Source of the DNA: an uncultured Bacilli bacterium | GTDB taxonomy: Bacteria; Bacillota_I; Bacilli_A; RF39; UBA660 | Length of the DNA stretch: 62,293 nucleotides | Assembly (NCBI GenBank): GCA_934096605.1 | Contig: CAKOMI010000003.1 | Location: 1-62,293 of the forward strand | Direction: 5' to 3' | Shown: positions 4,690 to 48,032 of the stretch, piece after piece | How positions within the stretch are numbered: the first letter of the stretch is position 1 | Layout of the letters: each line of letters starts with the position of its first letter | Made by a program: the position numbers and the translations under genes | Notes under the pieces: model-generated | The model's input: only the letters and a program-made list of their open reading frames with translations | Databases searched by the model: none | What the model was told of the DNA's origin: nothing

Positions 4690-5502
4690 CTATGCGGCTG
4701 GTCCTGTAGGTCCTTGTGGAATAGTTAAATCTAACGAATAAGTATTATTGCCTAAATTGTTAATAGTTGCAGCTGCATTAGTTCCAGGATTTCCAGTTGT
4801 TACTGTTCCAATTTGTAAATTGATCGCGGGTCCGGTAGGCCCCGTAGGTCCTTGTTCACCAGCAGCACCAGCAACCCCTTGTGGTCCAGTAGGTCCAGTA
4901 GGCCCCGTAGGTCCAGTAGGTCCGGTAGGTCCTTGCTCACCAGCAGTACCAGCGATACCTTGTGGTCCAGTAGGTCCGGTAGGTCCCGTAGGTCCTTGTT
5001 CACCAGCAGCACCAGCAATACCTTGTGGTCCAGTAGGTCCGGTAGGTCCTTGCTCACCAGCAGTACCAGCGATACCTTGTGGTCCAGTAGGTCCAGTAGG
5101 TCCTTGTTCACCAGCAGTACCAGCGATACCTTGTGGTCCAGTAGGTCCAGTAGGTCCTTGTTCACCAGCAGCCCCAGCAACCCCTTGTGGTCCAGTAGGT
5201 CCGGTAGGTCCTTGCTCACCAGCAGTACCAGCAATACCTTGTGGTCCAGTAGGTCCAGTAGGTCCAGCCGGTATAACAAAATTTAATATAGCATTTTCAT
5301 TAGTTCCAGCATTAACAACCGATGCACTAGAGCCTGGAAGCCCTTGTGTTGTTGTTCCGACACTTATAGTTGCCGGTCCTTGAGGTCCCGTAGGTCCCGT
5401 AGGACCAATCACACTCCTGCTTGAACAGCAGCAGCTTTGTTGTAAACTGTTTTTTTGAGCATTTTTTACATAATTATATGCTCTTTGATAATCTTGATCC
5501 AT
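4690..5502 (-). CDS. collagen-like triple-helix repeat protein (BclA-like spore surface protein candidate)
   Basis: Long G-X-Y run ([18 protein letters not shown] repeated) and two related non-collagen beta-type modules ([36 protein letters not shown]; [36 protein letters not shown]). Confidence 0.85.
4826..5269 (-). repeat. tandem 54-bp (18-codon) repeats with 9-bp GPT sub-repeats inside the collagen-like gene
   Basis: Unit ggtccagtaggtccggtaggtccttgctcaccagcagtaccagcgataccttgt recurs about 7-8 times with point variants; locally GC-rich versus the AT-rich surroundings. Confidence 0.9.
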
Positions 5503-11324: not shown

Positions 11325-12323
11325 ATGGGTAATTATATTAATGAGTTATTAAAAGAGTTAAATATAGATATAAGTTATTATGAAAAAAATGTTTTAGAAA
11401 AAGATTCTTTTTTAGAAGAATTAAAAAAACAAATTGTTAAATATAGTAGTATTTATGATACAAGTAGTGAGTTAGAAAAAGAGAGTATTAAACATAATCT
11501 TATTAGATACTATAATTTGCTTTATTATATTAATGCTAAAAAGAATAAAGAAAGAATGTATGTACTTGATGATGAATTACAAAGGATACCTAATATATTT
11601 ATATTAGATGATAAACCTACTAGATTTAATATTGATGAGTCGATTCTTGCTAATTTAGATATAGAAAAAGGACTTAGTAATGATGAGGCTTTGACTCTCC
11701 TTCAGTGGGTTGTTAATAATGCAAGGGATAATTTAGACATATCTAATAAATCAAATAATTCTAATCAAAGGGTATATTCTAATGATGATTTATCAGGGAC
11801 TTGTGGTTTAAGTCAATACTTAACTCTTTATCCGTTACAAAAGCTTGGACTTCAAGTAACCATTAATAATGTTGGCGATATGTGTCATATAAGGCATGCT
11901 TATGGCACAGTTGTAATCCCTATTAATGAAGATGGGAACATAATTAACAAGAGGTTTTTAATTGATTGTACATATAGACAATTCTTTCTTTTAAAAAATA
12001 ATCTTATAAGTAATTATATTAATAATACACCAGATATTGGTTTTTTTGTAAAAGAAAGTGAGGAAGAGACTAGGTTTGCTAAAGAACTTTTAAGTAATGG
12101 TTTTACTGATGCGGGAAAAGAAGCTTTAAGTCTTTATTTGAAACCGTTTTATGCTAGTTCTCTTACTATGGATAAAGTCTTTAAATTAGATAAATTATTT
12201 AATGAGTTAGATATTTCAAATATCGTTTTAAATATGGGTGAAGAATTTGATTATGATGAAGATGAAATTTTAAGTCGGGGCATGAATATAGAGTTACCTT
12301 GTGCATCCCCTAAAAAGAAATAA
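11325..12323 (+). CDS. hypothetical protein, possible papain/transglutaminase-like Cys-His fold
   Basis: 332 aa; candidate nucleophile in SGTCGLSQYL and HAYG..D downstream; no firm family call. Confidence 0.5.
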   Translation: MGNYINELLKELNIDISYYEKNVLEKDSFLEELKKQIVKYSSIYDTSSELEKESIKHNLIRYYNLLYYINAKKNKERMYVLDDELQRIPNIFILDDKPTRFNIDESILANLDIEKGLSNDEALTLLQWVVNNARDNLDISNKSNNSNQRVYSNDDLSGTCGLSQYLTLYPLQKLGLQVTINNVGDMCHIRHAYGTVVIPINEDGNIINKRFLIDCTYRQFFLLKNNLISNYINNTPDIGFFVKESEEETRFAKELLSNGFTDAGKEALSLYLKPFYASSLTMDKVFKLDKLFNELDISNIVLNMGEEFDYDEDEILSRGMNIELPCASPKKK

Positions 12324-21629: not shown

Positions 21630-22262
21630 ATGCAAAATATCTTGGAATGGTTAAAGTCTAAAAAAATATTAGTTAGTTTTATCTTAATGGCTTTTGTTAC
21701 TGTAGTTTCTCTAGGCTTATACGCAACAAGTGTTATGGCTGAAGAAACCTATACTTGTCCAAAATCTGAAGAAATAGTTCCTTCAGAAGAAGAACAAAGT
21801 GAGATCGTTGTAGACATTAAAGGTGCTGTTGCAAAACCAGGTGTATATAAAGCCAAAAAAGGTAGCATTGTAAATGACTTAATAAAAATGGCTGGTGGCT
21901 TAACTAAAGATGCAGATACTAGCAATTTAAATTTAAGCAAATCTTTAACTAATGAAATGGTTGTAACAGTCTACACTAAAGATGAAGTTAAAAATATGGC
22001 TAAGCTAGATAGTATTACTGAGAATAACGAAAGCACAAGTAATGACCAAACAACTACTGACCAAGCAAGTTCTTTAATCAATATTAACACAGCTAGTTTA
22101 AGTGAATTACAAAATATTCCTGGTGTAGGTGAGGCAAAAGCTAAACTTATTATTGATTATCGCACTAACTGTGGCAAATTTACTAAAAAAGAAGATATTA
22201 AAAATATTAAGGGTATAGGCGACAAGATGTATGAAAAAATGGCCCCATATCTTACAGTCTAA
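21630..22262 (+). CDS. comEA: ComEA competence DNA receptor (SLBB plus helix-hairpin-helix)
   Basis: N-terminal TM, VDIKGAVAKPGVYK (SLBB), INTASLSELQNIPGVGEAKAKLIIDYR..GKF..EDIKNIKGIG (HhH). Confidence 0.88.
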   Translation: MQNILEWLKSKKILVSFILMAFVTVVSLGLYATSVMAEETYTCPKSEEIVPSEEEQSEIVVDIKGAVAKPGVYKAKKGSIVNDLIKMAGGLTKDADTSNLNLSKSLTNEMVVTVYTKDEVKNMAKLDSITENNESTSNDQTTTDQASSLININTASLSELQNIPGVGEAKAKLIIDYRTNCGKFTKKEDIKNIKGIGDKMYEKMAPYLTV

Positions 22263-24291
22263 GTATGTAATAATCATTATTTTACTTTTCTTAACCATAA
22301 TATGTTATTTAAGATTATTTAGGAGTAATCATGATATTGATCCTGCTAAAGATAATCTCGTAGGGAAAGTGTTGAACTATAAAATAGATGGTGATACACT
22401 TTCTCTTACTTTAAAAAATAAAGAAAAATATATTGTTTACTACACGTTTAAAACTGAAAACGAAAAAAATTACTATGTAAATAGCTTAGGTTTTAACGAT
22501 ACTTTAGAATTATATGGTGAGTTTAACTATCCTAGTACTAATAAAATTCCTAATACTTTCAATTATCAAAAATATTTAAATAACAAAAATATTTATTATA
22601 TTTTTAATGCTAATAAAGTTTCTATTACTAAAAAGGGTAATGTTTTATTTCAAATTAAAACGAAAATTATGAATACTTTAATAAGTAAAGATAATAATGA
22701 TTATTTTCTTACGATGGTTATGGGTAATACTACTCTTTTAGATACAGATAATATTAGATTTAATGGTATTAGTCATTTATTTGCTATTTCTGGAATGCAT
22801 ATTTCTTTGTTTATTTTTTTTCTTTCTAAAATATTTGGTAGGTTAGGTAATAAGAAAAATATTATTATCTTACTTTTTTTAAGTTTTTATGCTTTTTTAA
22901 CTAGTTTTACACCTTCTGTTTTAAGAGCTAGTTTAATGTGGGTGGCATCTTTAATAAATGATAAATATAATTTGGGTTTAAATACAAGATTAAGACTATT
23001 TTATATAGTAACAATCTTACTACTTATTAATCCGTTTTTCATCTATGATATAGGCTTTCAATATTCCTTTTTAATAAGTTACTGTCTTACTTATTTAATA
23101 CCAAGAAAAAATTATTTTATAAGTCTTTTCTATACCAGCCTTGTGGCCTTTTTAGCTAGTATACCCATCACCGCTAGTAATTATTATTCTATTAATCTTC
23201 TTACTGTTATTTGGAATTTGTTTTTTGTACCTTTCGTTAGTTTTATTTTATATCCTGTCTGTTTCTTAAGTTTACTAATACCTCTTTTAAATCCTTTATT
23301 TTCTAAGTGCATTTTAATATTTTCTAATATTAATAATTTGTGTAGCACTATTACCGTCGGAGTTGTTGCTATCCCTAAAGTACCAATTATCCTTTGGTTT
23401 ATTTATTTTGTTATACTATTTATGATTTTAAAAAAGAAAAAAAGAAAATACAAACTCATCTTACCAATTGTGTTTTTGGTTATATTGTTATTTCCTATAT
23501 TAGATAACGCATGTCACGTTTACTACTTAAATGTATCCCAAGGTGACTCTAGTTTAATTGTAACACCTAATAAAAAAGCTGTCTTAATTGATACAGGAGG
23601 GTTAGTTAGTTTTAAAAAAGAAGATTGGACTGTTAAAACTAAAAAAACAAACAATGCATCGAATATTAAGACTTTTATTAATTCACTTGGCATTAATGAG
23701 TTAGAAACTTTAATAATTACACATGGAGATTACGATCATATGGGAGAAGCTGTAAATCTTGTCAATATTTTGAAAGTTAAAAAAGTAATCTTTAACTGTG
23801 GAACGTTTAATACATTAGAATCTAATTTAAGAAAAGTTTTAGAAGCAAAAAAGATTCCATACCAGTCATGTATTAAAGAGCTTAACATTGAGAACTACCA
23901 ATTAAACTTTTTAAATACAAGAGTATTTGGGGATGAAAATAATAATAGTAATGTTATTTATACAGAACTTAATGGATATAAGTTTATGTTTATGGGAGAT
24001 GCGGGAATTGAAAAAGAAAAAGATATTTTAGATAAGTATAACTTAGCAAATATTGATGTATTAAAAGTAGGACATCATGGGAGTAAGACAAGTAGTAGTA
24101 AAGAGTTTATAGATGAAATTAAACCAAAGTATTCCATTATTAGTGTTGGGAAAAATAATCGTTATGGACATCCAAATAAAGAAGTATTAAATAATTTGAG
24201 TGATTCAAAAATATATAGAACAGATCAAGATGGTAGTATTATGTTTAAGATGAAAAACAATAAATTAAAAATTGAGATATGTAGTCCATAG
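22231..24291 (+). CDS. comEC: ComEC/Rec2 DNA internalisation channel with intact C-terminal metallo-beta-lactamase domain
   Basis: Competence domain (GISHLFAISGMHISL, PSVLRASLM), MBL motifs LNVSQGDS, THGDYDHMGE, FMGDAG, KVGHHGS, RYGHP; start overlaps the comEA end. Confidence 0.9.
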   Translation: MKKWPHILQSKYVIIIILLFLTIICYLRLFRSNHDIDPAKDNLVGKVLNYKIDGDTLSLTLKNKEKYIVYYTFKTENEKNYYVNSLGFNDTLELYGEFNYPSTNKIPNTFNYQKYLNNKNIYYIFNANKVSITKKGNVLFQIKTKIMNTLISKDNNDYFLTMVMGNTTLLDTDNIRFNGISHLFAISGMHISLFIFFLSKIFGRLGNKKNIIILLFLSFYAFLTSFTPSVLRASLMWVASLINDKYNLGLNTRLRLFYIVTILLLINPFFIYDIGFQYSFLISYCLTYLIPRKNYFISLFYTSLVAFLASIPITASNYYSINLLTVIWNLFFVPFVSFILYPVCFLSLLIPLLNPLFSKCILIFSNINNLCSTITVGVVAIPKVPIILWFIYFVILFMILKKKKRKYKLILPIVFLVILLFPILDNACHVYYLNVSQGDSSLIVTPNKKAVLIDTGGLVSFKKEDWTVKTKKTNNASNIKTFINSLGINELETLIITHGDYDHMGEAVNLVNILKVKKVIFNCGTFNTLESNLRKVLEAKKIPYQSCIKELNIENYQLNFLNTRVFGDENNNSNVIYTELNGYKFMFMGDAGIEKEKDILDKYNLANIDVLKVGHHGSKTSSSKEFIDEIKPKYSIISVGKNNRYGHPNKEVLNNLSDSKIYRTDQDGSIMFKMKNNKLKIEICSP

Positions 24292-24304
24292 AAAGGAGTA
24301 AGAT

Positions 24305-25192
24305 ATGAACTATTACAACGAGATAAAAAATAAGTTAATAGATAATGAAGTTTATTCAATGGTAAAGGACTATTCGAAAGAAAGGCATAAAGTTATTACA
24401 TATTTTGAAATAGGGAGATTATTAACTGAGGCTGGAGGAAAATATGGAGATAATGTTATAGATGAATACTCTCAAAAACTAGTTGTTGAAGTTGGTAAAA
24501 AATATAATAGAAGAACATTATTTAGAATGAAACAATTATACAATATATTTAGTAATGAAAAAGTGTCCACACTGTGGACACAATTGACATGGAGTCATTT
24601 AAGATTATTATTCAGTTTAGAAACTGATTCTATGAATTATTATATTAAAGATACAATAAATAAAAATTTATCAGTTAGAGAATTAGAATTTAAGATTAAA
24701 TCTAATGAATATGAAAGATTACCTATTGAAACTAAAAACAAATTAATACTTGATGATGAAATTGAAACAACAGATTTAGTACCAAATCCCATAATAATTA
24801 GAAATAAAAATAATATTGAAATAGTTACTGAAAAAGCGTTACATAATTTAATATTAGAAGATATAGAATCATTTATGAAAGAACTCGGTAATTCATTTAG
24901 TTTTATAGGTAGTGAATATAAAATAAAAATAGGTGATAGAAATCATTATATAGATTTGTTATTATTTAATATAAAGTTTAATTGTTATGTAGTAATTGAA
25001 TTAAAAGTTACCCAATTTAAAGTTGAATATATTTCACAGGTTCAAAAGTATATGAATTACATAGATAAAAACATAAAAGAAATAAGTAATAATAATACAA
25101 CGGGAATATTAATATGCAAAAGAGAAAATAAATTTGTAATAGAATACTGTTCAGATGAGAGAATTGCTGTTAGAGAATATGAATTAGTATGA
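24305..25192 (+). CDS. YhcG/DUF1016 PD-(D/E)XK nuclease (cassette 1)
   Basis: LTWSHLRLL, VRELEFKIKSNEYERL, FMKELGNSFSFIGSEYKIKIGDRNHYIDLLLFN...VVIELK (D..ExK), GILICK..VIEY; RBS GAAAGGAG directly after the comEC stop. Confidence 0.85.
   Translation: MNYYNEIKNKLIDNEVYSMVKDYSKERHKVITYFEIGRLLTEAGGKYGDNVIDEYSQKLVVEVGKKYNRRTLFRMKQLYNIFSNEKVSTLWTQLTWSHLRLLFSLETDSMNYYIKDTINKNLSVRELEFKIKSNEYERLPIETKNKLILDDEIETTDLVPNPIIIRNKNNIEIVTEKALHNLILEDIESFMKELGNSFSFIGSEYKIKIGDRNHYIDLLLFNIKFNCYVVIELKVTQFKVEYISQVQKYMNYIDKNIKEISNNNTTGILICKRENKFVIEYCSDERIAVREYELV
24563..24581. repeat. perfect 9+1+9 palindrome inside DUF1016 copy 1
   Basis: GTGTCCACA c TGTGGACAC. Confidence 0.95.
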
Positions 25193-25198
25193 TATAAT
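25190..25198 (+). promoter_or_regulatory. extended -10 box TGATATAAT overlapping the DUF1016 stop (cassette 1 junction)
   Basis: TGA stop is the TGn of TGnTATAAT; the same box recurs at all cassette junctions; cargo ATG about 22 nt downstream. Confidence 0.55.
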
Positions 25199-25219
25199 AT
25201 AGATACTGGAAGGTGTTAT

Positions 25220-25789
25220 ATGAAAATTGAAGAGTTAAAAAAATTAAAAGAAAAAGTAGAACAATTAATAAAAAAAAGAAATGAAGTATTAGAGATTCAA
25301 GAAGAAATAAAAAAATTAGAAGAAACAGATGAAATTAAAAAATATTTAAATTTATTAAATTTATTCAAAGAAAAAACAACAGGAAGAAATACTGGAATTG
25401 AAAAATTTACTAACAAAAAAATTATTGATATTGCAGTAAGTAATACAAAAATAACTCCTGATGAGGAAATGTATGTATATATAGGAACGTATAAGTATAA
25501 TAATGAAATTGACATTGTTCATGGCTCTTGTGATATTTTAGTAAGTAGGAATGACCATAAAGCAAATTATGTTCTATATCAAAACTTAGAAGCTAAATAT
25601 TATGAAACTGTTCAAATTCCATATACAAAAGCTGACGAATTTGAGTCTACTCATAAAATAATATTTCCACAAAACGTTGCAAATAAACAAAGATATTTTT
25701 ATGATTTACAATCTGAATATTTTGAAACAATGGTTTTTGAATCTCCTGAAAAAGCAAAAGAGAAAGTTAATAGATTAATAAGAAAATAG
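25220..25789 (+). CDS. cargo 1: hypothetical protein with N-terminal coiled coil
   Basis: 189 aa, RBS GGAAGGTG; no recognisable motif. Confidence 0.6.
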   Translation: MKIEELKKLKEKVEQLIKKRNEVLEIQEEIKKLEETDEIKKYLNLLNLFKEKTTGRNTGIEKFTNKKIIDIAVSNTKITPDEEMYVYIGTYKYNNEIDIVHGSCDILVSRNDHKANYVLYQNLEAKYYETVQIPYTKADEFESTHKIIFPQNVANKQRYFYDLQSEYFETMVFESPEKAKEKVNRLIRK

Positions 25790-25801
25790 TATTAGTAAAT
25801 T

Positions 25802-25826
25802 GAGGCTTAGAAATAAGTCTCTTTTA
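25802..25826 (+). terminator. rho-independent terminator after cargo 1
   Basis: GAGGCTTA gaaa TAAGTCTC followed by TTTT. Confidence 0.65.
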
Positions 25827-25873
25827 TATAACATTATATTTGATTAAATTCGTATGCATAAACATATGTCACC

Positions 25874-26444
25874 ACATGGAGATTACGATCATATGGGAGA
25901 AGCTGTAAATCTTGTCAATATTTTGAAAGTTAAAAAAGTAATCTTTAACTGTGGAACGTTTAATACATTAGAATCTAATTTAAGAAAAGTTTTAGAAGCA
26001 AAAAAGATTCCATACCAGTCATGTATTAAAGAGCTTAACATTGAGAACTACCAATTAAACTTTTTAAATACAAGAGTATTTGGAGATGAAAATAATAATA
26101 GTAATGTTATTTATACAGATTTTAATGGATATAATTTTATATTTATGGAATATGTGGGAATTGAACAAAAAAAAGATATTTTAGATAAGTATAACTTAAC
26201 AAATATTGATGTGTTAAAAGTAGGACATCATGGGAATAAGACAAGTAGTAGTAAAGAATTTATAGATGAAACAGAACCTAAGTATGCCATTATTATTGTA
26301 GGAAAGAATAATAGATATGGCCATCTGAAAAAAGAAGTACCTAATAATTTAGATAACTCTAAAATATACAGGACAGATCAAGATGGAAGTACTATGTTTA
26401 AGATTAAAAATATCAAATTACAAATTGGGACTTGTAGTCTGTAG
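25874..26444 (+). pseudogene. displaced comEC 3' remnant 1 (full-length tail, degenerate)
   Basis: First ~265 nt match comEC 23721 onward with one mismatch seen; the rest diverges and loses MBL residues (FMGDAG to FMEYVG, GHPN to GHLK); lacks the comEC 5' 1.5 kb. Confidence 0.85.
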
Positions 26445-26456
26445 GAAGGAGCAAAT

Positions 26457-27344
26457 ATGAATTATTATAATGAAATAAAAAATAAATTAGTAGATAATGA
26501 AATATATTCAAAAGTGAAAGACTATTCGAAGGAAAGACATAAAGTTGTTACATATTTTGAAATTGGCAAGTTGCTAAATGATGCAGGTGGAAAATATGGA
26601 GATAATATTATAGATGAATATTCTAAAAAATTAGTTGTTGAAGTTGGTAAAAAATATAACAGAAGAACATTATTTAGAATGAAACAATTATACAATATAT
26701 TTAGTAATGAAAAAGTGTCCACACTGTGGACACAATTGACATGGAGTCATTTAAGATTATTATTCAGTTTAGAAACTGATTCTATGAATTATTATATTAA
26801 AGATACAATAAATAAAAATTTATCAGTTAGAGAATTAGAATTTAAGATTAAATCTAATGAATATGAAAGATTACCTATTGAAACTAAAAACAAATTAATA
26901 CTTGATGATGAAATTGAAACAACAGATTTAGTACCAAATCCCATAATAATTAGAAATAAAAATAATATTGAAATAGTTACTGAAAAAGCGTTACATAATT
27001 TAATATTAGAAGATATAGAATCATTTATGAAAGAACTCGGTAATTCATTTAGTTTTATAGGTAGTGAATATAAAATAAAAATAGGTGATAGAAATCATTA
27101 TATAGATTTGTTATTATTTAATATAAAGTTTAATTGTTATGTAGTAATTGAATTAAAAGTTACCCAATTTAAAGTTGAATATATTTCACAGGTTCAAAAG
27201 TATATGAATTACATAGATAAAAACATAAAAGAAATAAGTAATAATAATACAACGGGAATATTAATATGCAAAAGAGAAAATAAATTTGTAATAGAATACT
27301 GTTCAGATGAAAGAATCGCTATTAGAGAATATGAATTGGTGTGA
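26457..27344 (+). CDS. YhcG/DUF1016 PD-(D/E)XK nuclease (cassette 2)
   Basis: Protein identical to copy 1 from about residue 60 to residue 291 of 295 (differs at residue 292, V/I); first 60 codons diverged. Confidence 0.85.
   Translation: MNYYNEIKNKLVDNEIYSKVKDYSKERHKVVTYFEIGKLLNDAGGKYGDNIIDEYSKKLVVEVGKKYNRRTLFRMKQLYNIFSNEKVSTLWTQLTWSHLRLLFSLETDSMNYYIKDTINKNLSVRELEFKIKSNEYERLPIETKNKLILDDEIETTDLVPNPIIIRNKNNIEIVTEKALHNLILEDIESFMKELGNSFSFIGSEYKIKIGDRNHYIDLLLFNIKFNCYVVIELKVTQFKVEYISQVQKYMNYIDKNIKEISNNNTTGILICKRENKFVIEYCSDERIAIREYELV
26715..26733. repeat. perfect 9+1+9 palindrome inside DUF1016 copy 2
   Basis: GTGTCCACA c TGTGGACAC. Confidence 0.95.
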
Positions 27345-27350
27345 TATAAT
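27342..27350 (+). promoter_or_regulatory. extended -10 box TGATATAAT at cassette 2 junction
   Basis: Overlaps the DUF1016 TGA stop. Confidence 0.55.
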
Positions 27351-27372
27351 ATGTATATAGGAAGTGATTACT

Positions 27373-28086
27373 ATGTCAAAAATACTTGAAACAAATTTGT
27401 GTAGAATTAATTATTCTGATAGTTTGGAAGAATTATCTAATGCAACAGTTAAACTATTACAAAATAAGATTGTTGAATATAAGAAATTATTTAATATTGA
27501 ATTTGATGAACAGATTATTGTGAATTATTTTGACGATTTAGAAGAGTTTAGAGAATTTATATATAAGATTAGAGGAGAAAGAGTGTCATTACCTAAATAT
27601 GCAAAAGGTACTTATGATGATGGCATGGTTAATGCATGCATTGAACCAGATACACAATTAAAAAGACTATATACTGCGAGTCACGAGTTGTTTCATATTT
27701 TATATATGAAGTATATATTAAAAAATGATTATTCGAATAGAATAGTTTGGTATGATGAAGGTATGGCTCAATTTATTTCTGGGGAAAAAGATAAATATGC
27801 TGATGAAGAAAAATTTAAAAGATTTTACTTAAAAGTAAAAGAGAATACTAAAATAATACCAAATTTAAATGATTTGAAACATGGTAATTCATTTTGCAAT
27901 GATGAATATAATGGATATGATTTAAGCTATTTATCTGTTAGATATTTAAATGAAATATTAACTTCAGAAGATTTTAAAAAACTTATGTCTGATTTTTCAA
28001 CTATAAAAGAGTATGGAAACAATTTAATATATAGAATGTTTGATTATTATGATTTGAAATTTGAATGTAACAAAAGAATAAAATAA
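27373..28086 (+). CDS. cargo 2: putative gluzincin-type metallopeptidase (HExxH..E)
   Basis: SHELFHILYM then WYDEGMAQF 20 residues later (HExxH-X20-E); start at ATG after AGGAAGTGA. Confidence 0.55.
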   Translation: MSKILETNLCRINYSDSLEELSNATVKLLQNKIVEYKKLFNIEFDEQIIVNYFDDLEEFREFIYKIRGERVSLPKYAKGTYDDGMVNACIEPDTQLKRLYTASHELFHILYMKYILKNDYSNRIVWYDEGMAQFISGEKDKYADEEKFKRFYLKVKENTKIIPNLNDLKHGNSFCNDEYNGYDLSYLSVRYLNEILTSEDFKKLMSDFSTIKEYGNNLIYRMFDYYDLKFECNKRIK

Positions 28087-28187
28087 AATTAAAACTGCAT
28101 TATCAAAAAATGTGGTTTTTTCTTTGAAAATAGCCATATTTCATTCGAATTACTAATTGACAATTAGCACATGGAGATTACGATCAT

Positions 28188-29225
28188 ATGGGAGAAGCTG
28201 TAAATCTTGTCAATATTTTGAAAGTTAAACAAGTAATCTTTAACTGTGTGGTGTTTAATGATTTAGAATCTAGTTTAATAAAAGTTTTAGAAGCAAAAAA
28301 GATTCCATACCAGTCATGTATTAATGAACTTGATATTGATAATTACCAATTAAACTTTTTAAATACAAAAGTATTTGGTGATGAAAATAATAATAGTATT
28401 GTTATTTATACAAAACTTGATGGTTATAAGTTTGTGTTTATGGGAGATGCGGTAATTGAACAAGAAAAAGATATTTTAGATAAGTATAACTTAGCAAATA
28501 AAGAAGTATTAAATAATTTGAGTGATTCAAAAATATACAGGACAGATCAAGATGGTAGTATTATGTTAAAGTTTTATGAGTTGAACGAAAAAGTGCAGAC
28601 ACTGTCTGCACAATTATCTTGGTCGCATTATTGTGAATTACTATCTTTTGAGAATACTGATAAAATTAATTATTACATAGAATTAGTTAAAAATAATAAT
28701 TTATCAGTTAGGCAATTAAGAAAAAGAATAAAATCTAATGAATATGAAAGGCTTCCGGAATCTACTAAAAATAAATCAGTAGAACAAAAAGAATCCGATA
28801 TAGTTGATTTTATCAAGAATCCAATTTTGATTAAAAATAGCAATAAGTATGATATATTTTCAGAGAAAGTATTACAAAAATTAATTTTAGAAGATATTGA
28901 AAATTTTCTAGAAGAATTAGGAAATGGATTTACATTTATAAAAAGTGAATATCCAATTAAATTAGGTAATAGATACAACTATATTGATTTATTACTTTAT
29001 AATATTAAATATAGGTGTTATGTAGTTGTAGAATTAAAGATAGCAGAACTTAAGAAGGAGCATACTGGACAAATTATGACTTATATGAATTATATAGATA
29101 AGAATATAAAAACTATTGAAGAAAATGATACAGTAGGAATTATCATTTGTAAACAGGATAATTCCTACGTTATAAAATATTGTTCAGATGATAGAATTAT
29201 AGCAAGAGAATATGAACTTGTGTGA
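28188..29225 (+). CDS. chimeric ORF: comEC 3' remnant 2 (49-codon internal deletion) fused in frame to a 5'-truncated DUF1016 nuclease (cassette 3)
   Basis: MGEAVNLVNILKV..DILDKYNLAN/KEVLNNLSDSKIYRTDQDGSIML/KFYELNEKVQTLSAQLSWSHY...VVVELK..; a divergent DUF1016 allele. Confidence 0.8.
   Translation: MGEAVNLVNILKVKQVIFNCVVFNDLESSLIKVLEAKKIPYQSCINELDIDNYQLNFLNTKVFGDENNNSIVIYTKLDGYKFVFMGDAVIEQEKDILDKYNLANKEVLNNLSDSKIYRTDQDGSIMLKFYELNEKVQTLSAQLSWSHYCELLSFENTDKINYYIELVKNNNLSVRQLRKRIKSNEYERLPESTKNKSVEQKESDIVDFIKNPILIKNSNKYDIFSEKVLQKLILEDIENFLEELGNGFTFIKSEYPIKLGNRYNYIDLLLYNIKYRCYVVVELKIAELKKEHTGQIMTYMNYIDKNIKTIEENDTVGIIICKQDNSYVIKYCSDDRIIAREYELV
28593..28611. repeat. perfect 9+1+9 palindrome inside DUF1016 copy 3 (different arms)
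   Basis: GTGCAGACA c TGTCTGCAC at the same codon position as in copies 1 and 2. Confidence 0.95.
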
Positions 29226-29231
29226 TATAAT
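29223..29231 (+). promoter_or_regulatory. extended -10 box TGATATAAT at cassette 3 junction
   Basis: Overlaps the TGA stop of the chimeric DUF1016 ORF. Confidence 0.55.
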
Positions 29232-29250
29232 AAATATAGGATGTGATAAT

Positions 29251-30033
29251 ATGGCTTTACCGAAAATCATGTTTAAAGAAATGACTTTGCAAGAAAACAT
29301 AGATGTTATAAAGTGGGCATATTTTGAAAACAATGGAGCATTAAGCGTTCATGATTTTACAATTAAATACTTTCCACAACTAGCTAATTTGGATACAAAC
29401 TTATCTAGAGATGAAATTTATAAAGTTATAGAAGAAGTAGTTACTAATGATTATAATAAACATAAACATAAACATAGAATTAAAAGTGAAACCGAAAGAT
29501 ATAACAAGCTATGGAGACAATATAATGATAGTTATTTTAAGGCGTTATCATCATATTTGAAGATAGAATGGCCAAATAATTTAAAAGAAATAAGTGCAAC
29601 TGTTGGATTAATTCCGGTTTTTCCAAGATATTTAGACAATTTTTCTTTTTCAATTGGTACAGGCGTTGATGATTCTAAATTATTAGAAGTTTGTGCTCAT
29701 GAAACCCTACATTTTTTATGGTTTGAAAAATGGAATCAAATTCATCCAGAAACGCCAAGACGTGAATATGACTCACCATATTTAGTATGGCAATATAGTG
29801 AGATGGTAACAGATCCTATTTTGAATAATAAACCATTTTCTACAATGTTCGAATTTGATGAACGAGGATATGATAGCTTTTATGAACTTGAAGATGATTC
29901 TGGTAAAGTTATGGATAAATTGAGAAACATCTATAGTAAAGATATATCAATTGAAGAAAAAATGAATGATGGATTCAATTATATTAATCGAGTTTTTAAT
30001 AAAGATATAGATGAAATGATTGCGAAAAAGTAA
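29251..30033 (+). CDS. cargo 3: hypothetical HExxH protein
   Basis: CAHETLHFLWFEKW motif; unrelated to cargo 2 outside HExxH; start set at ATG 29251 after TAGGA. Confidence 0.5.
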   Translation: MALPKIMFKEMTLQENIDVIKWAYFENNGALSVHDFTIKYFPQLANLDTNLSRDEIYKVIEEVVTNDYNKHKHKHRIKSETERYNKLWRQYNDSYFKALSSYLKIEWPNNLKEISATVGLIPVFPRYLDNFSFSIGTGVDDSKLLEVCAHETLHFLWFEKWNQIHPETPRREYDSPYLVWQYSEMVTDPILNNKPFSTMFEFDERGYDSFYELEDDSGKVMDKLRNIYSKDISIEEKMNDGFNYINRVFNKDIDEMIAKK

Positions 30034-30107
30034 TCTTTTTTCTTTATAAATAAAATCATTGTATTCGACTTACTAATTGACAATCACCACATGGTGATTA
30101 TGATCAT

Positions 30108-30881
30108 ATGGGAAAAGCTGTAAATCTTGTCAATATTTTGAAAGTTAAAAAAGTAATCTTTAACTGTGGGGTGTTTAATGGTTTAATTGAAAGAGCTAAA
30201 GTTGCTTGTAAAGGAAGTAATAATAACATAGATAATCATTTTGTGTTACAATGCAAAATGATAAAATTAACAAAAGGTGCAACAAGAAAAGTTATAGATT
30301 ATAAATTATCTAGATATGCATGTTATTTAATGGTAATGAATGGTAATCCTAGGAAAAACATTATAGCTTTAGGACAAACATATTTTGCCATTCAAACAAG
30401 GAACCAAGAACTCTCTGAAAAAGAATATAATAATCTTACTGAAGATGAGAAAAGATTATATCGAAGAAATCAAACAAGAAAAGAAATTTATAATTTAAAC
30501 AAAATAGCAGTTGAAAGTGGAGTAAAAGATTTAGCTAGATTTCATAATGCAGGATATACGGGTCTTTATAATGGTGAAACAGCAGACGATATTTTTAAGA
30601 TGAAGAAACTAAGATATAGAGAAGATATATTAGATAACATGGGTAGCGAAGAACTAGCTGATAATATATTTAGAATTGCTCAAACCGATGCTAAATTAAA
30701 AAGAGATAAAGTGGATAATGAATATACTGCAAATAGTGTTCACTACGAAATTGGTAAAATAGTAAGAAAAGCAATTAAAGAAGCAGGTGGCACTATGCCA
30801 GAAGTTCTACCAACACCAAAGAAAAGTTTAAAAGAGTTAGAGAAAGAGAAAAAAGATTCAAATAAGTTACTTCAAGATTAA
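30108..30881 (+). CDS. dinD: chimeric ORF: comEC 3' remnant 3 (first ~95 nt) fused in frame to N-terminally truncated DinD (DNA-damage-inducible protein D family)
   Basis: MGKAVNLVNILKVKKVIFNCGVFNG then LSRYACYLMVMNGNP, GQTYFAIQTRNQEL, EDEKRLY, HNAGYTGLYNG, ILDNMGSEELADNIFRIAQTDAKLKRD, GGTMPEVLPTP, as I recall E. coli DinD. Confidence 0.8.
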   Translation: MGKAVNLVNILKVKKVIFNCGVFNGLIERAKVACKGSNNNIDNHFVLQCKMIKLTKGATRKVIDYKLSRYACYLMVMNGNPRKNIIALGQTYFAIQTRNQELSEKEYNNLTEDEKRLYRRNQTRKEIYNLNKIAVESGVKDLARFHNAGYTGLYNGETADDIFKMKKLRYREDILDNMGSEELADNIFRIAQTDAKLKRDKVDNEYTANSVHYEIGKIVRKAIKEAGGTMPEVLPTPKKSLKELEKEKKDSNKLLQD

Positions 30882-30896
30882 AAGGTATTATTAATG

Positions 30897-30905
30897 TGAT
30901 ATAAT
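30897..30905 (+). promoter_or_regulatory. extended -10 box TGATATAAT at cassette 4 junction (non-coding here)
   Basis: Same GTGATATAAT box 16 nt after the DinD stop, so it is conserved independently of any stop codon. Confidence 0.55.
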
Positions 30906-30924
30906 AATTACAGGTTGTGGTTAT

Positions 30925-31530
30925 ATGTCAAAGGAATCAAAATTATATTTATTTATAGATAGAAGAGACTATATAAAGAAATTAACTGATGATGATGTAA
31001 TAAATGTTATTGGAACAAAAGGCTCTGGTAAAACAACAAGTACACTAAAATATATTGAAGATGAAGATTGTATAGTGATTAATTGTGATAGATTATATGA
31101 AATGCCAACTGATAAAGTTGTTGATGATAAATATTTAACTGAAATAAAAGAGTTATTAAAAAATAAATATGGAAAAATATGTGAAGGTGAGGAATTTATA
31201 AATTGCTATAATGACATATTAGATTTTATCAAAAGTAAAAATAAAAAAGCTTTAATTGAAGGTAATGTAATCTATGATATTAAACCAATAACATTATTAA
31301 AAGGGACTATAATAGTTAAAAGAACTGGAATAATAAAATGCTTTATACGAGCAGTAAAGAGAGATTACCCAATTAAATATTTCTTAAATCAAGAAATTGA
31401 AAAGCATGGCAAAATATTAGGAAGAATCAATAGACTTAAAAATATAATAAAAAGAAGAAAAAATATTTTTAAAATATATCATGAAATTGAAAATATAATT
31501 GATGACTTAGAAACATATCAAAATGATTAA
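30925..31530 (+). CDS. cargo 4: P-loop NTPase/kinase-like protein
   Basis: Walker A GTKGSGKTT near the N-terminus; size and layout resemble small nucleotide/zeta-like kinases. Confidence 0.55.
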   Translation: MSKESKLYLFIDRRDYIKKLTDDDVINVIGTKGSGKTTSTLKYIEDEDCIVINCDRLYEMPTDKVVDDKYLTEIKELLKNKYGKICEGEEFINCYNDILDFIKSKNKKALIEGNVIYDIKPITLLKGTIIVKRTGIIKCFIRAVKRDYPIKYFLNQEIEKHGKILGRINRLKNIIKRRKNIFKIYHEIENIIDDLETYQND

Positions 31531-31575
31531 CTGTAATTATTATTTAATTGCTGTTTTTTCTTTGCGAAAATAATC

Positions 31576-31662
31576 GTTACGGGCACCATAAGGCATGTGT
31601 TTTAGACACATTAAAAAATAATAAATTAAAAATAGAGACTTGTAGTCAGTAGGAAGGAGTAA
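31576..31662 (+). pseudogene. displaced comEC 3' remnant 4 (last ~90 nt with internal deletion)
   Basis: gaaaataatcgttacgggcaccataagg matches comEC ..aaaaataatcgttatggacatccaaataaag; ..aataaattaaaaatagagacttgtagtcagtag matches the comEC terminus. Confidence 0.7.
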
Positions 31663-31664
31663 AT

Positions 31665-32548
31665 ATGAATTATTATAATGAAATAAAAAATAAATTAATA
31701 GATAATGAAATAAATAGAAAAGTAAAAAAATATTCAATTAATAGAAGTGATTTAAATACATACTATAATGTTGGAAAAATATTAAGTGAAGCCGGCAAGC
31801 ATTATGGAGAGGGTATTATTAAAGAATACTCTATTAAATTAACCAATGAATTAGGAAAGGGGTATACTCAATCAAGATTAAGATATTTTAGAAGATTTTA
31901 TAATGTTTTTTCAAAATGTCCGACATTGTCGGACAAATTATCTTATTCCCATTATTGTGAATTAATATGGATGGAAGATTTTAATAAAATAAACTATTAT
32001 ATAGACTTATCTGTTGATCATAATTTATCTGTTAGACAATTGAGAGACAGAATAAAATCAAATGAATACGAAAGGCTTGATGAAGTAGCTAAAAATAAGT
32101 TAAGAAACAAAGAAAAAAATAATGTAACAGATCTTGTTAAAAATCCAATATTAATTAAAAATAGTTATAATTATGAAAACATATCAGAAAAACTCTTGCA
32201 GAAATTAATACTTGAAGATATTGTATCTTTTATGAAAGAGTTAGGAACTGGATTTAGTTTTATAGATAATGAATTTAAAATTAAAGTAGGAGATAGTTAT
32301 AATTATATCGATTTACTTTTGTATAATATTAAGTTTAAATGCTATGTTGTTATAGAGTTGAAGTGATTAAGTTGAATTCAAATCATACTGGTCAAATTCA
32401 AAATTATATGAATTATATTGATAAAAATGTAAAAGGCATTGATGATAATAAAACTGTTGGCATTATCATTTGCAAACAAAATAATCAGTATGTAATAGAT
32501 TATTGTTCTGATGATAGAATTATTGCAAGAGAATATGAACTGGTGTAA
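31665..32548 (+). pseudogene. YhcG/DUF1016 nuclease with a frameshift right after the ELK catalytic motif (cassette 5)
   Basis: ORFs 31665-32366 and 32339-32548 together align to full-length DUF1016; frame changes at VVIELK/VIKLNSNHTGQIQNYMNYIDKN. Confidence 0.75.
31917..31935. repeat. perfect 9+1+9 palindrome inside DUF1016 copy 5 (third arm variant)
   Basis: TGTCCGACA t TGTCGGACA at the same codon position. Confidence 0.95.
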
Positions 32549-32554
32549 TATGAT
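32546..32554 (+). promoter_or_regulatory. variant junction box TAATATGAT at cassette 5
   Basis: Positional equivalent of TGATATAAT, overlapping a TAA stop. Confidence 0.4.
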
Positions 32555-32575
32555 ATTGTTAAGGGAGTGATTGTA

Positions 32576-33106
32576 ATGGAGGAAAAAAGATATATTTATG
32601 GAAAATCAAAAAATAAACTCAAAGAAAACACTATTAATTTACCAGACAAATATTTAATGAATTATGTCAATAATCCTAAGTATTTATTTCATGGCAGTCC
32701 AAAAAAATTAAAAATTATTGAGCCTAAAGAGTCAACCAGTTTTAATTATTTAATAAATAATAGGGGTGAGGCTGTATATATGACTCCTTTATTTGTTTTG
32801 GCTAGTGCCTATGCTTTTAGAGATTCTATTATAAAACTAAGTGAAAAAGTTCCTTATAACATTACAATAGGAGTAACAGAATACGCCAAAGAAATATACA
32901 TTATAATGGATAATGTTATTGTTGATGATGAGTTAGAAGGCTATATTTATGTTTTTGAGTGGGATGATAATTATAAACAAAGAAAAGACATGATTCAGTA
33001 TAAAGCTCATAAAGAAATGCCACCAATTGATATTATAAAGATTAAATTTAAAGATTTTAAAAAGTTTTATACTATTAATGAGGCTAATGAAAATATTAGA
33101 AAATAA
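32576..33106 (+). CDS. cargo 5: hypothetical protein with a possible H-Y-E ADP-ribosyltransferase-like pattern
   Basis: LFHGSP, then GEAVYMTP 29 residues later, then ELEGYIYVFE; start at ATG after GGGAGTGA. Confidence 0.5.
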   Translation: MEEKRYIYGKSKNKLKENTINLPDKYLMNYVNNPKYLFHGSPKKLKIIEPKESTSFNYLINNRGEAVYMTPLFVLASAYAFRDSIIKLSEKVPYNITIGVTEYAKEIYIIMDNVIVDDELEGYIYVFEWDDNYKQRKDMIQYKAHKEMPPIDIIKIKFKDFKKFYTINEANENIRK

Positions 33107-33133
33107 TGTGTTTTAGAAAATTATAAGACTTTT

Positions 33134-34108
33134 ATGAATAATCATGGTACAATACCTATGGTGGTTACAGTGAAAGTTATATTAATAAGTACTGATTCAG
33201 TACATTTACTTGAAGAAAAATTAAATGATTTAATTCCTACAAATTCAGTGGTAGTTCGTTATAATATGAAAGAAACGAGTCTAAATGATGTTTTAGAAGA
33301 GGCTTCATATGTATCTCTTTTTGATGATATGAAATATTTAGTTGTTAAAAATAGTGATTTTTTTGGTAAGGCAAAATTAACAGAAAAAGAAGAAAAAAGT
33401 TTTCTTTCTTATTTAGATAATCCTTATCCTTGTACAACTATTATTTTTACAACCTATGATACTATTGATAAACGCAAAAGTATTACTAAAAAAATAATTG
33501 ATAACTATAAACTAATTGAATTAAAAAGTCCTAAAAATTATGATTTAATTAGAGAAACTAAGTCAAGAACAAGTAAATATAACATAAGTGATAAATCGAT
33601 TAAATATATTGTTGATGCTTGTTTATCTAATTATGACTTAGTATTAGAAGAACTAGATAAGCTTGCGTTAATGTATAAAAAAGATGATACTATAAAATAT
33701 GAAGATATAAAAAATATTGTTGCTAGTAATGCAAGCGATAATGTTTTTAAATTTGTTGATGCTGTTATAGCCAAGGATTTACGAGTTAGTATGACTTTAT
33801 ATGAAGAGTTTTTGAGTTTGAAATTAGATCCCTTACAATTAATTAATATGTTAGTAAGAGAGTATCGTTTATTATATTATTATAAGTTATATGAAAGAAA
33901 AAGATATAGTATGAGTGATATTATGAGTAATTTACGTTTAGCTGATTGGCAAGTTCAAAAATTAATGAAAGAAGCAAGTGCTTATCATACTGATGATTTG
34001 AAAGACTACTTAATTAATTTATCAAAACTAGACTATAAAATAAAGTCTGGTAAACTTGATAAAACATCCGCTATGTATGCTTTCTTACTCCAAAATTTAG
34101 AATATTAA
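33134..34108 (+). CDS. holA: DNA polymerase III delta subunit
   Basis: Length, clamp-loader delta pattern (..LSLFDDMKYLVVKN.., ..NVFKFVDAV..) and the comEC-holA synteny known from Bacillus; true start uncertain (ATG 33158 or GTG 33170 possible). Confidence 0.7.
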   Translation: MNNHGTIPMVVTVKVILISTDSVHLLEEKLNDLIPTNSVVVRYNMKETSLNDVLEEASYVSLFDDMKYLVVKNSDFFGKAKLTEKEEKSFLSYLDNPYPCTTIIFTTYDTIDKRKSITKKIIDNYKLIELKSPKNYDLIRETKSRTSKYNISDKSIKYIVDACLSNYDLVLEELDKLALMYKKDDTIKYEDIKNIVASNASDNVFKFVDAVIAKDLRVSMTLYEEFLSLKLDPLQLINMLVREYRLLYYYKLYERKRYSMSDIMSNLRLADWQVQKLMKEASAYHTDDLKDYLINLSKLDYKIKSGKLDKTSAMYAFLLQNLEY

Positions 34109-47036: not shown

Positions 47037-47123
47037 AATACCACCTATACACCATTTTATCAAATCATTTACTATTTGACAACCAAAGCCCTTTCTTTTA
47101 TACTTGTTTTAGAAGGTGATAGT

Positions 47124-48032
47124 GTGAATAAAGAACTACCTTATGGCATGCAAAAATTTCTTGATACATTAAAATACGTTAATAAATTAAGTAAGAATAC
47201 CCTTGTATCTTATGAAGAAAATCTAAACATTTTTACAGAGTATTTAAATAATAAAGACCCATATTCTTTAAGTAGACAAGATATTGAAAATTTTTTTATC
47301 AAAGAACGTGACAAAACTGATACTACAAGAGCTCATTACCTAACAGTTATCAATCGTTTTTATATTTTTTCAGTTGAAGAAGGTCTTACAGCTTATAATC
47401 CTTGTGAAGGAATACCATTACCTAAAATAACTAAAGATTTACCCAAATATTTAACTTATGAAGAAGTAAACAAAATTCTAGATATTCCTCTTAATACACC
47501 GTATGATTATCGTACCAAAGCTATGTTAGAACTTTTATATGCTACTGGTATGCGAATAAGTGAATTATTAAGTCTTAGGTTTACTAATATTTCTTTAAGT
47601 GAAAACTTAGTAAGAGTAGAAGGAAAGGGTAGCAAAGAAAGAATTATTCCTTTTAATGAAACTAGTAAAAAATATTTAAAATTATATATTGAAGAGTATC
47701 GGGGGTACTTAATTAAAAAGGGAAAGAACTACGAAGAATTATTTTTAAATAACCGGGGTACACCTATTACAAGACAAGGGTTCTTTAAGATTCTTAAAAC
47801 TATTTGTCTTCATGCAGGCATAAAAAAAGATGTTAGTCCTCATACTTTAAGGCATTCTTTTGCTACACATCTTTTATCTAATGGAGCTGACTTACGGGTT
47901 ATTCAAGAACTTTTAGGCCATAGTGATATAACAACTACCCAAATATATACGCATGTTACTAAAGAACATGAAAAAGAAGAATACTTAAAAAGTCACCCTA
48001 GATCACAATTGAATCCTAAAGAAAAAGAATGA
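47124..48032 (+). CDS. xerD: XerD-type tyrosine recombinase
   Basis: ATGMRISELLSL, GKGSKERIIP, HTLRHSFATHLL, LLGHSDITTTQIYTHV (R-H-R-Y set); GTG start after GAAGGTGA. Confidence 0.8.
   Translation: MNKELPYGMQKFLDTLKYVNKLSKNTLVSYEENLNIFTEYLNNKDPYSLSRQDIENFFIKERDKTDTTRAHYLTVINRFYIFSVEEGLTAYNPCEGIPLPKITKDLPKYLTYEEVNKILDIPLNTPYDYRTKAMLELLYATGMRISELLSLRFTNISLSENLVRVEGKGSKERIIPFNETSKKYLKLYIEEYRGYLIKKGKNYEELFLNNRGTPITRQGFFKILKTICLHAGIKKDVSPHTLRHSFATHLLSNGADLRVIQELLGHSDITTTQIYTHVTKEHEKEEYLKSHPRSQLNPKEKE

Follow-up and report, generated by a model that had tools for sequence, protein, structure and literature searches.

A 62,293-nt stretch of DNA (contig CAKOMI010000003.1 of assembly GCA_934096605.1; hereafter the window) from an uncultured, low-G+C gut bacterium of the Bacilli/'Tenericutes', RF39-like in lineage, carries an array of small genes between comEC and holA. 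Self-BLAST and repeat finding showed that the last ∼570 nt of comEC (the tail) recur four more times downstream, and five co-oriented units stand behind comEC, each composed of a comEC 3′ end, a gene for a DUF1016 nuclease or DinD (the slot gene) and a cargo gene. The comEC–holA interval is probably a tandem accretion array at the attB site of temperate phages that integrate in comEC by means of a large serine recombinase (LSR), its units having been moved by phage-type recombination, and the nucleases would then be cargo or operon partners of comEC rather than the mobility enzyme.

Phage attachment sites at the unit junctions

The starting point of the displaced comEC ends is exact. All well-preserved displaced tails begin at the CA of the His codon in the HGDYDH motif, with those of the window starting CACATGG. 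Species-representative genomes were scanned with the nuclease, which gave 521 relatives, and the best 80 were mapped with a protein panel; the displaced tails found independently, via protein similarity, at these 80 species-level loci also all begin at the H codon. Nearly all displaced tails are preceded by a 27-nt motif of one of two types, J-A (ATTCGACTTACTTTTTGACAATCACCA) or J-B (ATTCGTATGCATAAACGTATGTCACCA), which itself follows a terminator-like hairpin. When 1.6 Mb were searched on both strands the J motifs proved to be confined to junctions (∼30, from many species). The comEC strand carries 29 of the 30 matches, and each of these 29 precedes a CATGG-type tail start, even where only a few dozen bases of tail are left; all units are co-oriented with comEC. 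Mean pairwise identity is 0.81–0.89 for the motif and 0.33–0.47 for the flank immediately upstream, values to be read with the ascertainment caveat that the matches were picked by their similarity to the consensus. The last 8 nt of the motif are the inverted complement of the first bases of the tail, forming an 8+2+8 palindrome round a non-palindromic CA that is perfect in several copies (AATCACCA-CA-TGGTGATT).

The origin of the motif was indicated by an exact-pattern scan of viral contigs, which found J-A on a siphovirus contig of 22 kb; it lies 24 nt past the end of a gene for a 473-aa Resolvase, Recombinase and Zn_ribbon_recom protein, which adjoins a CI-like repressor. In the phage, J-A forms the left half, or P arm, of an imperfect dyad of 56 bp (ATTCGACTTACTTTTTGACAATCACCA-CA-TGGAGGTATGTGGTTAGTAAGTCGAAT), the outer 12 nt of which are perfectly inverted, and the J-A consensus matches this P arm at 27 of 27 positions. 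Integrases 65–73% identical are accompanied by dyads with a common CCA-CA-TGG core and J-B-like arms. A dyad centred on 2 bp beside an integrase gene is what is expected of an LSR attP. For the A118 integrase, the minimal attP is 50 bp and the minimal attB 42 bp, strand exchange takes place at a central 2 bp whose asymmetry sets orientation, and attB lies within a competence gene.

Lysogens place phage DNA at the same dinucleotide. One contig with an identical integrase ends TTAATAATAACT/CATGG-P′ (the slash marking the join), which is the comEC 'LIIT/H' junction, and a metagenome scan with CA and P′ recovered a lysogen whose upstream flank translates as ...YLKSVGISKLNYLIIT/H. In total, ten lysogen junctions join host coding sequence to phage P′ at the same CA, and eight of these are comEC. 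attL junctions, in which host '...YL(I/L)(I/L)(T/S)' is followed by CA-TGG-P′ and then the integrase, were seen at loci L101, L125 and L134–L141. In two integrase clusters the phage adjoins a comEC truncated at 480–513 aa, with the Competence domain but no beta-lactamase tail, and the hosts in which one identical integrase is joined at that comEC CA represent at least six different backgrounds. In streptococci, a prophage that has a serine recombinase and occupies a fixed dinucleotide of comEC is already on record. The same integrase was also found joined at CA to two sequences other than comEC, '...GVLIT/H' (a 54-aa Lactamase_B fragment) and '...NVFIT/H' (by RhuM, UvrB and UvrA; L142 and L143, ∼11420–11610), which suggests secondary attachment sites at other metallo-beta-lactamase-motif sequences.

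From the attL junctions of the lysogens and the starts of the displaced tails, the putative attB of the window for comEC-targeting LSRs can be placed at 23700–23748 (+). Its crossover CA (23722–23723) comprises the first two bases of the His codon in HGDYDH, with the B arm (...LIIT) upstream and the B′ arm formed by the start of the tail. Three P arms lie further along the same strand, with 1–5 mismatches. The first (25848–25874) is of type J-B, differs at one position from the consensus ATTCGTATGCATAAACGTATGTCACCA and makes an attR-type junction with CA 25875–25876 and tail 2. The second (28143–28169) is of type J-A, has five mismatches to the phage P arm and makes an attR-type junction with tail 3, while the third (30063–30089), also J-A, has two mismatches and a junction, AATCACCA-CA-TGGTGATT, that is a perfect palindrome with 8-bp arms. 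An earlier, sequence-only reading of the window had seen no integrase, transposase or IS ends here; a recombinase is indeed absent from the array, but these three 27-nt phage-type att arms were overlooked.

The J arms abut the CA-TGG of comEC tails as the P arm of an attR would, and the centre, CA, is non-palindromic and the units co-oriented, as expected if the dinucleotide sets orientation. Because the motif is identical to the P arm of phage attP and lysogens join host to P′ at the same CA, the array junctions are read, at the level of sequence, as attR-type (P-CA-B′). This reading would explain why the boundary is exact to the nucleotide, why the 27-nt arm is conserved and why the units share one orientation, as well as the lack of a recombinase in the array and the order of units from proximal and young to distal and old. 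It would also explain why truncated tails keep their first bases, since these form the B′ half-site.

Units are thus bounded by CA cores, with a B′ or P′ half-site on the left and a P arm on the right. Some arrays contain complete P-CA-P′ junctions, shorter B-like arms joined to P′, and phage remnants after P′ (L119, L127), and for this reason the comEC–holA interval is best described as a mosaic of serine-integrase half-sites. The units opening with phage P′ (L119 5616–7400, L127 2769–4470) each hold one gene, for an esterase or a helix-turn-helix (HTH) membrane protein. Their left partners are of two kinds: a full P arm, giving a chromosomal attP-like site, and a shorter, possibly B-type arm with the sequence TTTCGA(C/T)ACTTAAAAAGTGG.

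In the model that we favour, a unit would consist of CA, a replacement comEC 3′ end that doubles as the B′ half-site, a slot gene, cargo with a terminator, and a 27-nt P arm. Insertion at attB would join the 5′ part of the resident comEC to the incoming tail, which would keep comEC whole and restore attB; the displaced tail would end up behind a P-CA-B′ junction and decay, and repeated insertion would build a stack with young units proximal and old units distal, reshuffled later by homologous recombination. We infer that the integrase-less units are mobilised in trans by a phage LSR, with or without its directionality factor. Two routes would use canonical reactions only. In the first, attL in a lysogen would recombine with a more distal attR of the array, excising the prophage plus the proximal unit; the composite circle, with attP P1-CA-P′, would integrate in the comEC of the next host through the P arm of the unit, and excision via the inner attR would then leave the unit at a restored comEC. 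In the second, attB would recombine with an internal P-CA-P′ site to free unit circles, which attL × attR recombination would re-insert into lysogens.

Several observations weigh against this model. The array holds no serine or tyrosine recombinase and no transposase, hence the appeal to action in trans, and beside the 80 arrays the only LSR homologue is a 23%-identical one 8 kb away in L041. No phage with a comEC tail, the nuclease or a junction of P arm and tail was found among IMG/VR viral contigs, although absence from one viral collection is not decisive; none of the phages sampled has an exact J-B arm, and circular units were likewise not found. A free unit circle would, moreover, carry P-CA-B′, which is attR-type, and its insertion into attB would be non-canonical because characterised LSRs pair only attP with attB, or attL with attR when a directionality factor is present. 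Homologous recombination evidently contributes, as the identical blocks of units 1 and 2 and the shuffled nuclease–cargo pairs described below show, and could explain some insertions. Finally, the origin of the first unit of tail, nuclease, cargo and P arm is not explained by the model.

Other candidates considered for the motif and its carriers were set aside. Loose J-B seed matches in viral contigs were attributable to chance, and a 2,270-nt contig of cluster P0001, considered as a unit circle, is a linear fragment broken inside tails. The arms of J are, by eye, unlike Xer half-sites, and the 2-bp centre fits a serine recombinase better than an Xer/dif-like site. The only recombinase signature in the window is an Xer-like tyrosine recombinase gene at 47076–48032 (C-terminal LGHSDITTTQIYTH), which is probably the chromosomal dimer-resolution enzyme. 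Nor is J a promoter only, since J-B has no −35 element and a promoter therefore cannot explain both types. The J-A arm does give a perfect TTGACA and, with the tail codons GAT-TAT/TAC-GAT 16 nt further on, a near-consensus sigma-70-type promoter: TTGACA-N16-TACGAT at 28157–28184 and TTGACA-N16-TATGAT (11/12) at 30077–30104. Via J-A, insertion of a phage or unit could drive transcription of the displaced tail, the downstream genes and ultimately holA.

A further proposal, which we regard as distinctly unlikely, is that the cassettes are 'gene-repair satellites' in an arms race over competence. The phage would silence DNA uptake by splitting comEC, and a cassette circle (P-CA-tail) would recombine with attL using the phage integrase and its directionality factor, restoring comEC and trapping the prophage between a non-excisable attP/attR pair, where it would decay. 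If true, this would explain the P-CA-P′ junctions followed by phage remnants, and the nuclease or DinD, transcribed together with comEC, would have phage or incoming DNA as its target.

Exchange of units between species

Among the 80 mapped loci, comEC is in most cases followed directly by the nuclease, and at least 31 loci have one displaced tail or more. Of the 83 complete tails, 65 are followed by the nuclease, which starts 13–17 nt past the tail, 10 by DinD and two by holA. The two tails that precede holA (L040, L069) are terminal displaced copies with native spacing, as expected for the original gene end. Homologous arrays include contigs of 77–650 kb. In another species (L009–L018, for example L014 6830–11148) the order is comEC, DinD/Bro-N, nuclease and pcrA with no holA downstream, so the linkage of comEC and nuclease persists where the downstream neighbour differs.

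comEC itself is chimeric at the phage crossover point. Compared with that of another species its N-terminus is ∼33% identical and its tail 60–88%; tails average 68% aa identity across species, and at the DNA level comEC aligns between species only from the HGDYDH codons onward. Indeed, the left ends of 757 pairwise high-scoring segment pairs (HSPs) cluster at −75 to +5 nt of the H codon, and the best pairs (85–92% nt identity) span position 0, the H codon, to the nuclease stop, with the upstream part of comEC unaligned. Tail identity is uncorrelated with that of the comEC N-terminus (rho 0.05) and weakly correlated with that of the nuclease (rho 0.19). In the window, the 5′ 1491 nt of comEC are accordingly lineage-specific, and the 3′ 570 nt (23722–24291), with which unit 1 begins, are the tail now in use, itself subject to horizontal exchange.

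Whole units have evidently moved as well. Cargo genes of the window recur elsewhere at 76–97% aa identity despite ∼35% identity between the comEC N-termini, and window unit 2 (tail, nuclease, HExxH cargo and junction) corresponds to the comEC-proximal, functional unit of L069, with 86% nt identity over 2,334 nt from the H codon. Intact tails of L031, L039, L053, L056, L068 and L088 fall into a low (49–57%, in single-unit loci) and a high (69–82%) group by identity to the window; the two may represent, respectively, never-exchanged native tails and one widely circulating mobile lineage. At L133 (1050–2135) a 361-aa cargo with a weak transglutaminase-core match shares its unit with a nuclease that has 97% identity to nuclease 1 and, judging from such pairs, cargo turnover is rapid behind near-identical nucleases.

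The central proposal of the sequence-only reading was that insertions recur at a single point within the 3′ part of comEC and that every incoming unit supplies a fresh tail, displacing the older ones towards holA. These comparisons show the proposal to be correct and general. The variation in cargo and copy number between genomes that was predicted for the comEC–holA interval was likewise found, and the likeness drawn to tandem islands at the 3′ ends of genes is apt. Empty sites were not found at strain level: every assembly whose holA is identical has this array too, with frameshifts as the only differences.

Homologous recombination has acted on the array too. Units 1 and 2 share blocks of 100% identity of 211 nt (23720–23930 and 25873–26083) and 650 nt (24509–25158 and 26661–27310), with stretches 12–14% diverged between them, which indicates, from the sequence pattern, recent gene conversion between neighbouring units. 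One could therefore propose that units spread and stack by RecA-dependent homologous recombination only, for example after transformation, using the tails and nuclease genes as homology, and that the P arms are passive scars of one or two ancient phage events. The mosaic identity of units 1 and 2 fits such a scheme, as do the reshuffled nuclease–cargo pairs (L021, L064), the retention of comEA and comEC in the lineage, and the weak tail–nuclease correlation, which implies frequent recombination inside units. We nevertheless consider it unlikely on balance. It does not account for the sharp rise in identity at the upstream edge of the P arm, for the match of arm length and of both arm types to functional phage half-sites, for the retention of the first bases, the B′ half-site, in truncated tails (tail 4; L037, L058), or for the clustering of the left boundaries of cross-species exchange at the CA. 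Double crossover with linear single-stranded DNA, moreover, cannot place a unit flanked by tails in a recipient that has one tail only, since the homologies stand in permuted order. Phage-type recombination, supplemented by later homologous exchange, is thus the preferred reading.

Structure of the array and its slot genes

The genes of the array all lie on the forward strand and the decay of the displaced comEC ends grows along it. comEC (22231–24291) is intact, as had been stated in the sequence-only reading together with the recurrence of its ∼570-nt end, and encodes 686 aa with Pfam Competence and Lactamase_B domains. The unit 1 nuclease (24305–25192; 295 aa, intact) begins 13 nt past the comEC stop. 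It is a DUF1016/YhcG PD-(D/E)XK nuclease with PF17761 (E = 7e-23) and PF06250 (E = 4e-35) domains and the D...ExK motif IDLLL...VIELK, and matches PADLOC PDC-S02 (E = 4e-59). The cargo of unit 1 (25220–25789; 189 aa) is without a family match and has counterparts of 97% aa identity in L019 and 76% in L070; a terminator-like hairpin with a T run (25802–25821) ends the unit.

Tail 2 (25875–26444) is, as previously recognised, full length with catalytic residues lost, in this case the GD, and its first 211 nt are identical to the functional tail. The segment 23720–25212 (tail plus nuclease) is 93.7% identical to 25873–27364. The unit 2 nuclease (26457–27344; 295 aa, intact) contains the 650-nt block shared with nuclease 1 by apparent gene conversion, and is followed by an HExxH protein (27364–28086; 240 aa) with weak Peptidase_M9/MA_2 matches and 96–97% aa-identical copies in L069, L083 and L098. 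In unit 3 tail and nuclease are fused in frame (28170–29225): the tail (28170–28572) has an internal deletion of 42 codons, rather than the 49 first counted, and the nuclease (28584–29225) is N-truncated. The cargo is an HExxH-motif protein (29212–30033; 273 aa) with 86–95% aa-identical copies in L021, L036 and L038.

Unit 4 joins a displaced tail to a DinD/Bro-N-family gene (30090–30881). The tail keeps only its first ∼93–95 nt (to 30182), so the B′ half-site is retained, and the DinD gene, without an N-terminus of its own, matches the NF008573 equivalog (E = 2e-80; 30108–30881) and PADLOC PDC-S13. A P-loop protein with weak AAA matches (30925–31530; 201 aa) is the cargo, and its 80% aa-identical copy in L064 is placed after a nuclease. 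The tail 5 remnant (∼31559–31652) exists as proposed but is not simply the last ∼90 nt; it is doubly deleted, consisting of a GKNNRYGH piece and the last ∼45 nt with the stop, and has neither a P arm nor the B′ start. Nuclease 5 (31665–32548) is split into 233 + 69 aa by a frameshift near 32366 and is intact (294 aa) in other strains. The unit 5 cargo (32567–33106; 179 aa) has no family match, and its ∼52% aa-identical homologues in L030 and L065 are followed by a P arm and tail. Immediately before holA, 33106–33133 is a possible last stub of the native comEC end. The 12-mer ATGTGTTTTAGA that it has in common with tail 5 occurs exactly twice in the 62 kb, and the stub, already suspected in the sequence-only reading, is plausible but weak as a comEC end. 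holA itself (33134–34108; PF06144 and PF21694) is the downstream boundary of the array. The G+C content of the array is that of its flanks, no known RNAs or tRNAs were found within it, and no record of the exact comEC protein was found.

That the repeats arose by misassembly or chance can practically be dismissed. Contigs do often break inside tails, but the array recurs in unchanged order, frameshifts apart, in independent metagenome assemblies from this strain group, which rules out an artefact of assembly; dozens of species have homologous arrays, and the copies are diverged and differently decayed.

Profile matches confirmed that one nuclease, or DinD in one unit, and one unrelated gene lie between successive remnants. 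The PADLOC matches mark both slot genes as candidate phage-defence proteins, and both families are known inside type I restriction–modification and BREX-type loci. comEC and nuclease are probably co-transcribed, given that the nuclease starts 13–17 nt past the comEC stop. Against solved structures the nuclease gave only a marginal Cas4 match. PADLOC searches of the cargo gave no matches beyond the slot genes and generic HTH proteins, and family and PADLOC searches revealed no toxin or immunity families among the array genes. On a Citrobacter freundii plasmid (L131 1682–3945; CP060651) a DUF1016 gene and the stop of a gene for a tyrosine recombinase overlap, a further case in which this family is associated with a recombinase.

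The sequence-only reading had cast the nuclease as the sole candidate mobility enzyme, acting by homing or through transformation-driven illegitimate recombination. In the homing version the DUF1016 protein would be a free-standing homing endonuclease that cuts comEC near HGDYDH and is copied in, with a co-converted tail, during double-strand-break repair, in the manner of the mobile open reading frames (mORFs) of fungal mitochondria. PD-(D/E)XK nucleases can be sequence-specific, and the tight linkage (65 of 83 complete tails followed by a nuclease at 13–17 nt), the co-transfer of tail and nuclease as a 1475-nt block, and an architecture in which a foreign C-terminus is carried and the native one displaced would all suit this idea. 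It is nonetheless very improbable. DinD takes the slot after 10 of the 83 complete tails, and P′-starting units carry neither gene, only an esterase or HTH gene. The target is regenerated unchanged, the first 60–211 nt of successive tails being nearly identical, so a homing nuclease would have no self-immunity. Nor would a nuclease encoded by the donor be expressed from DNA that enters as a single strand. About 20 of the 80 homologous nucleases lie at unrelated loci without duplicated ends of neighbouring genes; some of these retain decayed comEC remnants (L023, L086), and none was found behind another gene with displaced ends of its own. A phage att site fully accounts for the boundary and for the motif beside it: the junctions carry the P arm of phage attP abutting the crossover dinucleotide, and phages with a matching integrase sit at the same comEC CA in many hosts. 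Mobilisation of the units by a recombinase encoded elsewhere, which the sequence-only reading had named as the outcome that would overturn it, is what these data point to at the level of sequence, if not of experiment. The idea that bacteria have here a new homing system, however tempting, is unsupported.

The DUF1016 genes have a feature of their own. Nuclease 1 contains a perfect GC-rich palindrome at 24563–24581, with equivalents of differing sequence at 26715–26733, 28593–28611 and 31917–31935. It occupies the same codons from gene to gene, in the part that encodes DUF1016_N and a little before QLSW(S/T)H (nt ∼258 in L019–L098). Arms of 8–9 bp are present in 79 of 95 nuclease genes, in more than 40 covarying, strictly Watson–Crick versions; the usual form is 9+1+9 nt with the consensus GTGTCnnCA-N-TGnnGACAC, and only 5 of 552 control segments reach arms of at least 8 bp. 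The palindrome is kept in plasmid DUF1016 genes at 31–34% aa identity, from Butyrivibrio (34%) and Citrobacter (13-bp arms, 64% G+C), and lies at nt 277 of the L130 gene and nt 305 of the L131 gene; it is absent from one Methylibium DUF1016 gene. It is possibly a protein-binding or recombination site and, were the cassettes to act as satellites in competence as outlined above, could be the nuclease's own recognition or regulatory site. It provides an independent lead on a widespread family of defence-candidate nucleases. Outside the array, a minus-strand open reading frame at 4690–5502 encodes a collagen-like repeat.

Relation to known systems

The comparisons show that the C-terminal nuclease domain of ComEC is exchanged horizontally, in small cassettes, across many species of an uncultured gut lineage, with a breakpoint fixed to the nucleotide by a phage integrase site. 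This may offer the host a route to keep competence despite a phage attachment site inside comEC. In addition, the loci supply natural, multi-host sets of attB, attP, attL and attR for a large serine integrase family (∼1,500 relatives) that are of interest for genome engineering. No description of arrays of this kind at comEC was found in the searchable literature.

Phages and elements that target competence genes with serine recombinases at a fixed dinucleotide are represented by Phi1207.3, Phi10394.4 and Tn1207.1 in comEC and by A118 in comK, and the lysogens described here split comEC at CA in the same way. Those elements simply interrupt the gene, and replacement-end cassettes and stacks have not been described for them.

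The mORFs (Allomyces atp6; Glomus atp6, atp9, cox2 and nad3) share with the units a hybrid gene of resident 5′ and imported 3′ parts with a nuclease gene directly after it, a native 3′ end displaced downstream as a pseudogene, and interspecific transfer. There the endonuclease is the demonstrated agent, whereas here phage att arms lie at the junctions and the nuclease, which is not present in every unit, is dispensable for unit structure. Insertion leaves the target unaltered. Multi-unit arrays and extra cargo are not features of mORFs.

At Rhs/CdiA loci, orphan displaced 3′ gene pieces, each followed by a small gene, are stacked downstream of a full-length gene. The displaced 3′ pieces of comEC and the small gene after each resemble this arrangement; the comEC tails, however, are conserved, no signature of polymorphic toxins with cognate immunity genes was found, and the junctions are att sites.

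Closer parallels are provided by the accretion and cis-mobilisation of integrative conjugative elements (ICEs) and integrative mobilisable elements (IMEs). In these systems cis-mobilisable elements (CIMEs), integrase-less and bounded by att sites, pile up in tandem by the 3′ end of a target gene and can travel with a functional element through alternative att pairings. Like CIMEs, the comEC units lack integration and transfer genes and keep flanking att sites; unlike autonomous elements, they have no recombinase of their own. The differences are that CIME tyrosine integrases reuse hybrid att sites, while strict pairing governs serine-integrase half-sites, that the helper here would be a phage, and that the units are only ∼2 kb.

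The composite islands of staphylococcal cassette chromosome (SCC) elements at rlmH/orfX are likewise tandem stacks of cassettes with mixed cargo, placed at a single position within the 3′ portion of a conserved gene that remains intact. They employ the chemistry of large serine recombinases (Ccr), and some of their att-bounded units are recombinase-less (ccr-less pseudo-SCC). In the present case the target is comEC and not rlmH, and the repeated end is 570 nt (the beta-lactamase-fold domain from its catalytic motif on) as against ∼15–20 nt. The matching recombinases lie on temperate phages and in none of the arrays seen, the junctions are attR-type (P-CA-B′) plus a regenerated attB, and the integrase is no Ccr homologue as far as tested.

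Overall, SCC composite islands and CIME accretion are the closest working analogues of the comEC–holA array. No new mobility principle is involved; rather, the array widens the range of SCC/CIME-type accretion, which here involves the serine integrases of phages and cassettes bearing an entire substitute gene end.

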